Assembly: GCF_003018115.1 (NCBI RefSeq)
Contig: NZ_CP027457.1
Direction: 5' to 3' (one strand)
Length of the DNA stretch: 64,000 nt
Source of the DNA: Escherichia coli
GTDB lineage: Bacteria > Pseudomonadota > Gammaproteobacteria > Enterobacterales > Enterobacteriaceae
Positions 57,901-62,081 of the stretch are shown here, piece by piece; position 1 is the stretch's first letter; the number at the start of each line of letters is the position of its first letter. The position numbers are program-made.

Positions 57901-60900
57901 GACTGAACAAGGGCGCTCTTGTAAAAACAAGAGTTTTCTCGTGGTTTCGCCGAACTGTCACACTTACGTTCGGTTATGTGCTTAATAATGTTATGAAAAA
58001 GAAACCGGTTGCGCAGTTGGAGCGTCAGCATTCACTGCTGGAAAATCCATGTGCTTATGGGTTGTTATCGCAGTTCCAGGCTGCGATAGTCGTTAACTGT
58101 TTTACACTTAATAAAATAATTTGAGGTTCGCTATGTCTGACGACATGTCTATGGGTTTGCCTTCGTCAGCGGGCGAACACGGTGTACTACGCTCCATGCA
58201 GGAGGTTGCAATGAGCTCCCAGGAAGCCAGCAAGATGCTGCGTACTTACAATATTGCCTGGTGGGGCAATAACTACTATGACGTTAACGAGCTGGGCCAC
58301 ATCAGCGTGTGCCCGGACCCGGACGTCCCGGAAGCTCGCGTCGATCTCGCGCAGTTAGTGAAAACTCGTGAAGCACAGGGTCAGCGTCTGCCTGCACTGT
58401 TCTGTTTCCCACAGATCCTGCAGCACCGTTTGCGTTCCATTAACGCCGCGTTTAAACGTGCGCGGGAATCCTACGGCTATAACGGCGATTACTTCCTTGT
58501 TTATCCGATCAAAGTTAACCAGCACCGTCGCGTGATTGAGTCCCTGATTCATTCGGGCGAACCGCTGGGTCTGGAAGCCGGTTCCAAAGCCGAGTTGATG
58601 GCAGTGCTGGCACATGCTGGCATGACCCGTAGCGTCATCGTTTGCAACGGTTATAAAGACCGCGAATATATCCGCCTGGCATTAATTGGCGAGAAGATGG
58701 GGCACAAGGTCTATCTGGTCATTGAGAAGATGTCAGAAATCGCCATTGTGCTGGATGAAGCAGAACGTCTGAATGTCGTTCCTCGTCTGGGCGTGCGTGC
58801 ACGTCTGGCTTCGCAGGGCTCGGGTAAATGGCAGTCCTCCGGCGGGGAAAAATCGAAGTTCGGCCTGGCTGCGACTCAGGTACTGCAACTGGTTGAAACC
58901 CTGCGTGAAGCCGGGCGTCTCGACAGCCTGCAACTACTGCACTTCCACCTCGGTTCGCAGATGGCGAATATTCGCGATATCGCCACAGGCGTTCGTGAAT
59001 CGGCGCGTTTCTATGTGGAACTGCACAAGCTGGGCGTCAATATTCAGTGCTTCGACGTCGGCGGCGGTCTGGGCGTGGATTATGAAGGTACTCGTTCGCA
59101 GTCCGACTGTTCGGTAAACTACGGCCTCAATGAATATGCCAACAACATCATCTGGGCGATTGGTGATGCGTGTGAAGAAAACGGTCTGCCGCATCCGACG
59201 GTAATCACCGAATCGGGTCGTGCAGTGACTGCGCATCACACCGTGCTGGTGTCTAATATCATCGGCGTGGAACGTAACGAATACACGGTGCCGACCGCGC
59301 CTTCAGAAGATGCGCCGCGCGCGCTGCAAAGCATGTGGGAAACCTGGCAGGAGATGCACGAACCGGGAACTCGCCGTTCTCTGCGTGAATGGTTACACGA
59401 CAGTCAGATGGATCTGCACGACATTCATATCGGCTACTCTTCCGGCACCTTTAGCCTGCAAGAACGTGCATGGGCTGAGCAGCTTTATTTGAGCATGTGC
59501 CATGAAGTGCAAAAGCAGCTGGATCCGCAAAACCGTGCTCATCGTCCGATTATCGACGAGCTGCAGGAACGTATGGCGGACAAAATGTACGTCAACTTCT
59601 CGCTGTTCCAGTCGATGCCGGATGCGTGGGGGATCGACCAGTTGTTCCCGGTTCTGCCGCTGGAAGGGCTGGATCAAGTGCCGGAACGCCGCGCTGTGCT
59701 GCTGGATATTACCTGTGACTCTGACGGTGCTATCGACCACTATATCGATGGTGATGGTATTGCCACGACAATGCCTATGCCGGAGTACGATCCAGAGAAT
59801 CCGCCGATGCTCGGTTTCTTTATGGTCGGCGCATATCAGGAGATCCTCGGCAACATGCACAACCTGTTCGGTGATACCGAAGCGGTTGACGTGTTCGTCT
59901 TCCCTGACGGTAGTGTAGAAGTGGAACTGTCTGACGAAGGCGATACCGTGGCGGACATGCTGCAATATGTACAGCTCGATCCGAAAACGCTGTTAACTCA
60001 GTTCCGTGATCAAGTGAAGAAAACCGATCTTGATGCTGAACTGCAACAACAGTTCCTTGAAGAGTTCGAGGCAGGTTTGTACGGTTATACCTATCTTGAA
60101 GATGAATAATTAAGATTATTCTGCTGGCGGGTCGATTTATTTACGTAAATCGGTCCGCTTTCTTTTTATATATTCTTAAAAATAATTTAGCTGCTTTTCT
60201 TATTAAATAATCTCCCTACAATCGCTGCATTAATTAAATGCAGAGGGAACGGTTATGAAAAAATGGAAAGTACGTAGCGCGTTGGTGGCATTAATCGTGC
60301 TGCTGGCCGGTTGTTCCAGTAATGCGCAGTATAATAGCAGTGCATCGGGCAATGTCGGCACCGCCTGGGGTGGGGATGTGCACTCAACGGTTCAGGGCGT
60401 ATCTGCTGAGCGAGCCTGGCGCGATCCGGCAGAGATGATCGTTATTAGTTATTCGACTAATGTTCCTTCCGGCTACGACCGCGTTTATAGCATTCGTATT
60501 AACGAACTGGAATATGCTATTCGCGATGGTAATTTTAATTCTCTACCTATTACGCGGGTTTATGATTCATCCAATAATGAACCACGCTATATTATCCATG
60601 CCAGAGTAGGAATGAATTATCAATTATATGTCCGCAATTACAGTCGTAACACCAACTACGAGATCGTTGCTACGGTTGATGGCCTGGATGTGCTGAACGG
60701 CAAGCAAGGTTCGCTGAATAACAACGGCTATATTGTGAATGCCGGAGATTCGTTAGCGATTAAAGGATTCCGCAAAGATAAACATACCGAAGCGGCTTTT
60801 CAGTTCGCCAACGTTGTTGATTCCTACGCAGCCAATTCGGCGCAAGGCGATATGCGTAATACCGGGGTAATCGGCTTTGCCGCCTTTGAATTACAAGGCC

Positions 60901-62081
60901 CGGCGCAAAACGCGCTGCCACCGTGCTCTGGACAAGCTTTTCCAGCAGATAACAATGGCTATGCGCCGCCACCGTGTCGGAAATAGCAACCTCGCTTGAT
61001 GCCTCGCCCATTTAAGGCGATAATTAGCACAAACTTGTGTTTCGCAAATCCAACCCTTCCTCGTCGGGCCTAACGACGCGGAAGGGTTTTTTTATATCGA
61101 CTTTGTAATAGGAGTCCATCCATGAGCACCTTAGGTCATCAATACGATAACTCACTGGTTTCCAACGCCTTTGGTTTTTTACGCCTGCCGATGAACTTCC
61201 AGCCGTATGACAGCGATGCCGACTGGGTGATTACTGGTGTGCCGTTCGATATGGCCACTTCTGGTCGTGCGGGGGGACGCCACGGCCCGGCAGCTATCCG
61301 TCAGGTTTCGACTAACCTGGCCTGGGAACACAACCGCTTCCCGTGGAATTTCGACATGCGCGAGCGTCTGAACGTGGTGGACTGCGGCGATCTGGTATAT
61401 GCCTTCGGCGATGCCCGTGAGATGAGCGAAAAACTGCAGGCACACGCCGAGAAGCTGCTGGCTGCCGGTAAGCGTATGCTCTCCTTCGGTGGTGACCACT
61501 TTGTTACGCTGCCGCTGCTGCGTGCTCATGCGAAGCATTTCGGCAAAATGGCGCTGGTACACTTTGACGCCCACACCGATACCTACGCGAACGGTTGTGA
61601 ATTTGACCACGGCACCATGTTCTATACCGCGCCGAAAGAAGGTCTGATCGACCCGAATCATTCCGTGCAGATTGGTATTCGTACCGAATTTGATAAAGAC
61701 AACGGCTTTACCGTGCTGGACGCCTGCCAGGTGAACGATCGCAGCGTGGATGACGTTATCGCCCAGGTGAAACAGATTGTGGGTGATATGCCGGTTTACC
61801 TGACCTTTGATATTGACTGCCTGGATCCTGCTTTTGCACCAGGCACCGGTACCCCGGTAATTGGCGGCCTGACCTCCGATCGCGCTATTAAACTGGTACG
61901 CGGCCTGAAAGATCTCAACATCGTTGGGATGGACGTAGTGGAAGTGGCTCCGGCATACGATCAGTCGGAAATCACTGCTCTGGCAGCGGCAACGCTGGCG
62001 CTGGAAATGCTGTATATTCAGGCGGCGAAAAAGGGCGAGTAAGCACCAGATGCGATGCGCACGGGTAAAACGTGCCATTAA

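Follow-up and report, generated by a model that had tools for sequence, protein, structure and literature searches.

Among the small stand-alone outer-membrane (OM) lipoproteins that protect or regulate the bacterial envelope are the MliC/PliG lysozyme inhibitors, LpoB, and RcsF. Here, we analyzed a stretch of 64,000 nucleotides (nt) from Escherichia coli (contig NZ_CP027457.1 of assembly GCF_003018115.1; the whole stretch is referred to as the window), in which a 243-codon lipoprotein gene, referred to as X (60255-60986, + strand), lies between the polyamine biosynthesis genes speA and speB. Taking its identity, its anatomy, and its evolutionary history jointly, we consider it likely that X is a genuine conserved gene for an OM lipoprotein of an uncharacterised family that has been lost in K-12. 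X is like MliC/PliG, LpoB, and RcsF in combining a lipobox, a flexible linker of variable length, and a single compact domain, and also in its predicted monocistronic organization, patchy distribution, and dispensability under laboratory conditions; neither in sequence nor in fold was a relationship to these proteins detected, and the resemblance is architectural only and serves as a lead.

The speA-speB interval of the window spans 1012 bp (60110-61121), with the speA stop codon ending at 60109 and speB beginning at 61122. The features that an initial annotation of this DNA had read there, a gap of about 1 kb holding a 243-amino-acid (aa) open reading frame (ORF) with an LLAGC lipoprotein signal and a good Shine-Dalgarno sequence, are all present; the ORF lies on the same strand as speA and speB, and the Shine-Dalgarno sequence is GAGGG (60243-60247), 7 nt 5' of the ATG. 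The ORF is far beyond chance because it has 249 homologues in a word-index search and 4226 matches in a profile search, a ratio of nonsynonymous to synonymous substitution rates (dN/dS) of 0.06-0.12, and a confident AlphaFold2 model. X has been annotated since the first O157 genome but has never been studied: it is called 'lipoprotein' in O157:H7 (WP_000758914.1) and 'hypothetical protein' in E. coli F9792, in which the DNA of this locus is 100% identical.

The N-terminus of X (MKKWKVRSALVALIVLLAGC) is a standard lipoprotein signal of the Sec/LspA type, in which the signal peptide MKKWKVRSALVALIVLL-A-G-C20 comprises a positively charged n-region, a hydrophobic h-region, and a lipobox that matches the lipoprotein signature [LVI][ASTVI][GAS]-C, with Cys20 encoded at 60312-60314. 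In an alignment of family members, the Cys20 column is invariant (70/70) and is preceded by hydrophobic segments. Lol sorting in E. coli sends to the OM those lipoproteins that lack Asp at position +2, and the +2 residue of X is Ser, as predicted for a protein of the OM. By the rules of Lgt/LspA/Lnt processing and Lol sorting, Cys20 would thus be acylated and the protein then delivered to the OM. Structure prediction with AlphaFold2 gave a model with 14 strands (mean predicted local distance difference test score (pLDDT) 86; predicted template modelling score 0.75), and the model and the alignment together suggest a flexible tether of ~13 residues followed by a compact all-beta domain of ~180 residues. 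A proline-rich tail (AFPAD..YAPPP) closes the protein; in enterobacteria it is flanked by Cys224 and Cys241, a pair that probably forms a periplasmic disulfide. As stated in the initial annotation, the protein is rich in Asn, Ser, and Tyr (9.9%, 8.6%, and 5.8%, respectively).

In codon comparisons with Escherichia and O157 orthologues, dN/dS lies in the range given above where dS is not saturated, and it stays below 0.16 wherever dS was computable, indicating that X is under strong purifying selection. Of the 14 orthologues compared, 13 retain an intact 243-codon frame, and none departs from this length by more than three codons. Besides the lipobox Cys, the invariant residues are T36, W38, G39, R53, Y66, Y122, N128, E136, D142, Y159, and R173, and the family motifs are LGTxWGE, YEIVATVDGLDVLNG, GFRK, and AFPAD..YAPPP; in the 70-member alignment, conserved Cys, His, and Met residues are absent from the mature domain.

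The 249 homologues from the word-index search carry either no name or the label 'lipoprotein', and a Pfam domain is absent from all of them. Their hosts include Enterobacteriaceae, Morganellaceae, Gilliamella, Neisseria, Kingella, and Pseudomonas aeruginosa PA7 as well as Burkholderia, Ralstonia, Variovorax, Acidovorax, Paracoccus, and others. Searched by profile, 1.84 billion representatives yielded 4226 clusters (50% identity) at E <= 1e-3, 3283 of them at E <= 1e-10, and in distant high-GC members the lipobox is followed by Pro/Ala-rich linkers of 100-150 residues before the domain. The statement that the protein has no recognizable motif or family was borne out: scans of X against Pfam, NCBIfam, PADLOC, and PHROGs returned nothing or signal-peptide noise (DUF7537, ActS, LptM), Pfam scans of 70 family members and 10 long homologues returned nothing, a profile search of the PDB with the X sequence gave no match, and comparison of the model with PDB folds gave no convincing match. 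The only weak fold similarities to recur were to peptide-binding MATH/TRAF-type and immunoglobulin (Ig)-like sandwiches. For the MATH/TRAF-type beta-sandwiches (the MATH domains of SPOP and USP7; the fungal effectors Avr2 and ToxA), template modelling scores (TM-scores) of 0.2-0.27 at 3-16% identity fall in the generic range for sandwiches and are no evidence of homology. Binding of metal, which weak matches to PCuAC domains had brought up, was ruled out, since the mature domain conserves none of the three residue types His, Met, and Cys.

The only curated family reached from X is Pfam DUF7918 (PF25534), a family of unknown function of which a literature search found no mention. It is matched by 5 of 30 circularly permuted relatives of X (best E 6e-10; score 39.9 bits, cutoff 27), and these relatives are homologous to the lipoprotein family of X (hhalign probability 100%, E 5.5e-40, 131 core columns). 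The DUF7918 model matches neither X itself (E <= 1) nor any of 70 members of the lipoprotein branch (E <= 0.1). The two branches differ in the placement of the LGTxWGE segment, which is N-terminal in X and follows the core in the permuted branch, the order in some secreted homologues and in proteins of large phages being core, LGxxWG segment, and then a PFP tail.

Three such large-phage proteins, EVB91_083 of Rhizobium phage RHph_I1_18, XYS97718 of Sinorhizobium phage Phosso, and AUZ95445 of Agrobacterium phage Atu_ph07, align with the core domain of X at 33-36% identity over ~100-130 residues, and the best match in a viral structure library had E 6e-7 and a TM-score of 0.5. They have in common with X the motifs VDGxSVxDGK, GY, F.F, and SYA..NxGVIG, to which LGVxWG is added in two of the three. 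Unlike X, the phage proteins are circularly permuted, lack a signal peptide and a lipobox, and are predicted to be cytoplasmic; they match no PHROG family. In two of the three phages the start codon of the permuted gene overlaps an upstream gene for a von Willebrand A-domain protein, and other signal-less members are found on phage-like contigs beside genes such as those for heme oxygenase, bilin reductase, and a 5'-3' exonuclease. Near the three phage loci (L151 2989-3714; L152 3001-3852; L153 2938-3729) there are also genes for ClpS, a small heat-shock protein, thymidine kinase, and threonyl-tRNA synthetase.

Within E. coli, X is a strain-variable and dispensable gene. We surveyed 5426 complete genomes and counted the X interval as present at a coverage of at least 80% of the 1012 bp. 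On this count 3550 genomes carry it, and the others match just its last 77 bp (61045-61121); in a reciprocal search with the K-12 junction, the short K-12-type spacer was found in 1865 of the 5426 genomes (~34%). Carriers include O157:H7, O145:H28, O104:H4, Nissle 1917, and the W-derived LY180, and non-carriers include K-12 derivatives and BL21. That speA and speB are directly adjacent in K-12, as the initial annotation had it, is correct: in the K-12 strain J53 they are 137 bp apart with no ORF between them. Given its absence from K-12 and from about a third of the genomes, X is not a core gene of E. coli. The haplotypes are distinguished by one segment:

60110-61044, + strand: 935-bp segment that distinguishes the two E. 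coli haplotypes; K-12-type genomes have ~60-62 bp instead, with the promoter-like box 5' of speB (see below) kept

An insertion sequence, IS1, interrupts X in LY180 (L145 1646-3154) and in strain 23CRST038 (L146 2248-3434), and these IS1 copies are insertions into X and not its carriers. In 23CRST038, IS1 also marks a rearrangement that brings actS and ygeQ beside the remnant of X. A truncated allele of 174 aa (P0025) stands for 448 member sequences, and the main 90%-identity cluster of X for 4753.

The order speA-X-speB is found at 14 loci in ~10 genera. Within Escherichia it is present in Escherichia sp. E1V33 and E. whittamii, and in E. albertii X is followed by speB on a contig that ends inside X. 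Beyond Escherichia the same order occurs in Citrobacter (C. gillenii, C. portucalensis, and Citrobacter sp. FP75), Kluyvera georgiana, Klebsiella spallanzanii and a second Klebsiella lineage, Intestinirhabdus, Phytobacter, Kosakonia, Entomohabitans, and 'Enterobacter' sp. BIGb0383. Identity of the X proteins drops roughly with host distance, from 95% within Escherichia to 70-75% in Citrobacter and Salmonella, 58% in Kosakonia and Phytobacter, and 53% in Entomohabitans. One Salmonella lineage has speA-X, with speB not adjacent; in Salmonella enterica (L004/L005 6001-12732), genes for a GntR-type regulator and for sugar-alcohol dehydrogenases follow X. Because these next genes are not speB, the Salmonella locus has been rearranged or carries an insertion.

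Signs of mobility were not found at the locus. The annotation of three genomes has no integrase, no transposase or IS element, and no tRNA gene beside X, the interval has no meaningful flanking repeats and no target-site duplication, and with a site that is constant in ~10 genera the arrangement does not have the marks of a genomic island or mobile insertion. All 12 'plasmid' matches of X are predicted to be non-mobilizable, and the majority are of such a size (~0.7-4.9 Mb) that they represent chromids or mislabelled chromosomes. The initial annotation had taken X for an accessory gene placed inside a polyamine locus; the recurrence of speA-X-speB in ~10 genera and the lack of mobility genes and repeats speak against this. 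Because of the synteny across genera and the lack of mobility genes and repeats, we regard presence of X as the older state in Escherichia and the K-12 allele as derived. In our model, X was probably inherited at the speA-speB site and then lost or replaced in part of E. coli. Gene-less short spacers between speA and speB are common in other Enterobacterales (51 metagenome contigs), and evidently X has been lost many times or the two forms have been exchanged by recombination.

The origin of the K-12-type spacer was approached by comparing the 62 nt from the speA stop codon to the hairpin that precedes speB in J53 (L001 2941-3002) with window positions 60987-61046. Compared with gene-carrying E. 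coli, the K-12 sequence agrees at 31/59 positions without gaps and at 36/57 with gaps (53-63% identical). E. whittamii and Escherichia sp. E1V33 match the window spacer at 60/60 positions, and the K-12 spacer is nearer to the gene-less spacers of Citrobacter-like metagenome contigs (L110, L122), with 45/58 positions (78%) in common. Plain deletion as the origin of the K-12 allele was ruled out, because the 62 nt that remain diverge too far from the gene-carrying sequence, no microhomology is apparent at the borders of the allele, and no intermediate allele was found, strain TUM13936 having proved window-like. A long foreign tract was likewise ruled out, since the divergence of speA is even (~1.5%) and does not rise toward the junction; in speB, K-12 is no more diverged from a gene-carrying strain than two gene-carrying strains are from each other. 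A short allelic replacement is possible. No donor for the 62 nt was found among the 51 gene-less metagenome spacers.

Sequence signals around X suggest three transcription units, speA, then X, and then speB. The flanking genes and the signals are as follows:

58133-60109, + strand: speA, biosynthetic arginine decarboxylase (658 aa from the RefSeq start codon), the 5' neighbour of X
60126-60169, + strand: T1, intrinsic terminator directly 3' of speA (15-bp stem, 4-nt loop, T-run; from a terminator scan)
60217-60222, + strand: -10-like hexamer TACAAT of the putative X promoter, ~32 nt 5' of the start codon (from column conservation)
60225-60243, + strand: palindrome CTGCATT-AATTA-AATGCAG with perfect 7-bp arms, between the -10 box and the Shine-Dalgarno sequence of X
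60996-61024, + strand: sigma-70 promoter-like element TTGATG-17 nt-GATAAT, between the X stop codon and speB (from a promoter scan)
61052-61093, + strand: hairpin and U7 5' of speB (15-nt arms, 93% complementary; an inverted repeat with fold z -4.2)
61122-62042, + strand: speB, agmatinase (306 aa; from the ORF and RefSeq annotation), the 3' neighbour of X

The identification of speA is based on the end of its ORF at 60109, on the RefSeq annotation of identical DNA (F9792 and others), and on a 1977-nt alignment with K-12 and O157. X is most likely transcribed separately, because a terminator follows speA, X has a conserved -10 box and a conserved Shine-Dalgarno sequence of its own, and a hairpin precedes speB; the same signals argue against co-transcription of X with speA and speB. 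T1, which lies between speA and X and was absent from the initial annotation, folds with a minimum free energy of -18.5 kcal/mol (z -4.5), and its hairpin recurs in 11 further genera or species, in which both arms of the stem carry changes. A sub-threshold Rfam match to the Pseudomonas small RNA P31 on the opposite strand (60127-60176, - strand; score 25.8 bits, gathering score 40, E 0.03) most likely reflects no more than the terminator hairpin. The hexamer TACAAT is the putative promoter element of X in that its column reads TACAAT, TACTAT, TACCAT, TATTAT, TACACT, or TAAGCT in 12/12 aligned taxa; its -35 region is weak (TTTTCT), and a scan for consensus promoters made no call at this position. 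The palindrome that follows is confined to Escherichia, its conservation failing in the other aligned taxa, and its fold sequesters the Shine-Dalgarno sequence of X (-16 kcal/mol, z -3.8), so that it could be an operator or a hairpin in the 5' untranslated region that masks translation initiation.

The promoter-like element between X and speB is probably the speB promoter. In most taxa compared, with or without X, CTTGAnn-17-GATAAT stands at a constant distance from the hairpin, and the K-12 version reads TTGAAT-17-GATAAT. The initial annotation had credited X with a strong terminator of its own: a hairpin with a U-run is indeed there, but it is not specific to X, as the hairpin (61052-61088) is identical in K-12, which lacks the gene. 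Its sequence (CCCTTCCTCGTCGGG...; CCCTTCCTCGTCGGGCCTAACGACGCGGAAGGG) is conserved in most Enterobacterales compared, with or without X, and Phytobacter and Kosakonia have a different sequence at this position; an Rfam search returned no family for it. Because the hairpin is present and conserved with or without X, including in K-12, it is really part of the speB upstream region, where it would terminate the X transcript and also sit in the speB leader. Between 60996 and 61121, the promoter-like box is followed within ~30 nt by the hairpin and U7 and then by the ribosome-binding site of speB, an arrangement that looks like a leader or attenuator.

To place X in its wider gene context, ORFs from 80 loci were clustered, ~35 neighbourhoods were inspected, and nine metagenome or genome look-ups were added; no conserved gene partner of X emerged from this clustering and inspection beyond lineage-specific synteny. 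In Variovorax and Acidovorax, the X homologue lies inside the histidine operon as hisD-X-hisC (L009 8001-9881; L010 8001-9233; L058 5839-7042) and is followed by a gene for a small secreted Rap1a-like protein (Pfam E 2e-4 to 7e-4, sub-threshold) and, in one genome of this type, also by a gene for a SUFU-family protein. Elsewhere, the homologue lies between metJ and a gene for an OM beta-barrel protein ahead of priA (Providencia), between thrS and recO (Gilliamella), or next to a phospholipase C gene (P. aeruginosa PA7), or it is solitary, as on myxobacteria-like contigs. Linkage to polyamine genes is thus not a property of the family: because the neighbours outside the Enterobacteriaceae are unrelated, X has no obligatory link with polyamine genes, and a role in polyamine synthesis is unlikely.

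We suggest that X would be a non-enzymatic beta-sandwich binding module that is tethered near the inner face of the OM and whose partner in the envelope would be a protein, a peptide, or a glycan. A binding module rather than an enzyme is suggested because no Cys, His, or Met is conserved and because the weak fold similarities are to MATH/TRAF-type and Ig-like sandwiches. Such a module would most likely be protective or modulatory, like an inhibitor or immunity protein against an envelope-targeting factor. Rap1a and SUFU families are immunity proteins of polymorphic-toxin systems, and the Rap1a-like and SUFU-family neighbours in Variovorax are a weak pointer to a protective role. X has no sequence or fold match to the known immunity and inhibitor families Rap1a, Tai/Tsi, MliC/PliC, PliG, and Ivy. 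We regard this specific version of the function as possible but doubtful. Wider still is the speculation that X belongs to a large unstudied superfamily with an unrecognised beta-sandwich fold and with lipoprotein, permuted secreted, and signal-less phage branches, and that polymorphism of X alters the encounters of the envelope, which as a whole we think improbable.

Several observations count against parts of our interpretation. The 62-nt stretch of K-12 differs from its counterpart in gene-carrying E. coli far more than speA and speB do (~1.5%), so ancestral presence plus loss is not a simple deletion. The GC content of X is below that of its flanks in nearly every genus, which would also fit an ancient acquisition that preceded the radiation of the family. 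With regard to function, no toxin, effector, or type VI secretion gene was found beside any family member examined, the ~40% identity between the E. coli and Variovorax proteins is unusual for fast-evolving immunity proteins, and the Rap1a signals are below the Pfam threshold, so that the functional proposal rests on weak signals. The invariant polar residues could equally mark a catalytic or sugar-binding site, and since the phage relatives have no signal peptide, the domain is not intrinsically an envelope module.

Acquisition of X as a horizontally transferred islet, with K-12 in the original state, would account for its absence from K-12, B strains, and 34% of genomes and for the patchy occurrence of the family across Proteobacteria. 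As the initial annotation had sensed, X is also more AT-rich than its neighbours, with a GC content of 48.5% (47% at third codon positions) against 54% in speA and 55% in speB (60-62% at third codon positions), and the spacer 5' of X has 32% GC. The frequent gene-less spacers in other Enterobacterales and the greater closeness of the K-12 spacer to Citrobacter-like gene-less spacers (45/58) than to gene-carrying E. coli (36/57) fit this idea as well. Nevertheless, we find it quite unlikely, given that X occupies the identical site in ~10 enterobacterial genera and in sister Escherichia, whose spacers equal that of the window, that divergence of the orthologues roughly tracks host relatedness from 95% down to 53%, that no integrase, IS element, tRNA gene, or target-site duplication accompanies the gene, and that none of the 12 'plasmid' matches is predicted to be mobilizable. 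The IS1 insertions in LY180 and 23CRST038, the 174-aa allele with its 448 member sequences, and the loss of X in a third of genomes would suit a decaying or non-functional ORF that persists in some strains, the alternative allowed for in the initial annotation, as would the lack of a reported X peptide in those parts of the O157 proteome supplements that were checked. Such lesions are sporadic, however, and decay is not general: with a dN/dS of 0.06-0.12, an intact frame in 13/14 orthologues, a conserved lipobox, a main 90%-identity cluster of 4753 members, and a confidently predicted fold, decay is extremely unlikely.

Returning to the view that X is a conserved OM lipoprotein, two further proposals concern what it does. 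X might be a functional partner of the polyamine pathway that senses, binds, or exports agmatine or putrescine, for which the conserved speA-X-speB position in many Enterobacteriaceae speaks, as does one O157 proteome supplement that labels SpeA 'PP' with periplasmic predictions. Inherited synteny explains linkage within a single family, however, and X lies between terminators with a -10 box of its own, never adjoins polyamine genes outside the Enterobacteriaceae, and in one Salmonella lineage follows speA without speB next to it. Putrescine synthesis by the speA/speB route is established physiology in K-12, and it proceeds without X in 1865 E. coli genomes, K-12 among them, which leaves the proposal very unlikely. 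Alternatively, X might be an enzyme that acts on an envelope polymer (peptidoglycan, lipopolysaccharide, or exopolysaccharide) with a new beta-sandwich scaffold. R53, Y66, Y122, N128, E136, D142, Y159, and R173 are invariant across proteobacterial classes, and the very strong conservation of motifs such as YEIVATVDGLDVLNG and GFRK under strongly purifying selection would suit an active site. This we think unlikely, as there is no Pfam, NCBIfam, or PDB-sequence match to any enzyme family, and in the phage relatives the GFR motif is GW, making R173 not universal.

The finding is modest: X is an ordinary strain-variable gene, a member of the OM lipoprotein class from an uncurated family. Two thirds of E. 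coli carry X and the laboratory strain lacks it, which makes it a fair candidate for acting in settings other than laboratory culture. In the wider speculation above, presence or absence of X would alter how the envelope meets outside agents such as phages, colicins, type VI effectors, or host enzymes, and such an envelope factor would be invisible to K-12-based genetics. When knowledge of speA and speB from K-12 is transferred to O157:H7, O104:H4, Nissle 1917, or the W lineage, a predicted extra transcription unit intervenes, and the gene-carrying arrangement, rather than that of K-12, is the older one in Escherichia, which matters for pathogenic and probiotic strains. The family is a clean target for curation: its homologues number in the thousands, the structure model is confident, and neither Pfam nor NCBIfam has a dedicated model for it.

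Finally, we note two features 3' of speB. At ~62050-62330 of the window, two overlapping short ORFs encode near-identical peptides (..NALSDLRSAPVGRIRCASIASGNAH..), a duplication that suggests tandem repeats of the repetitive extragenic palindromic/bacterial interspersed mosaic element (REP/BIME) type. In addition, the distance between speB and loiP differs by 113 bp between strain F9792 and O157:H7.

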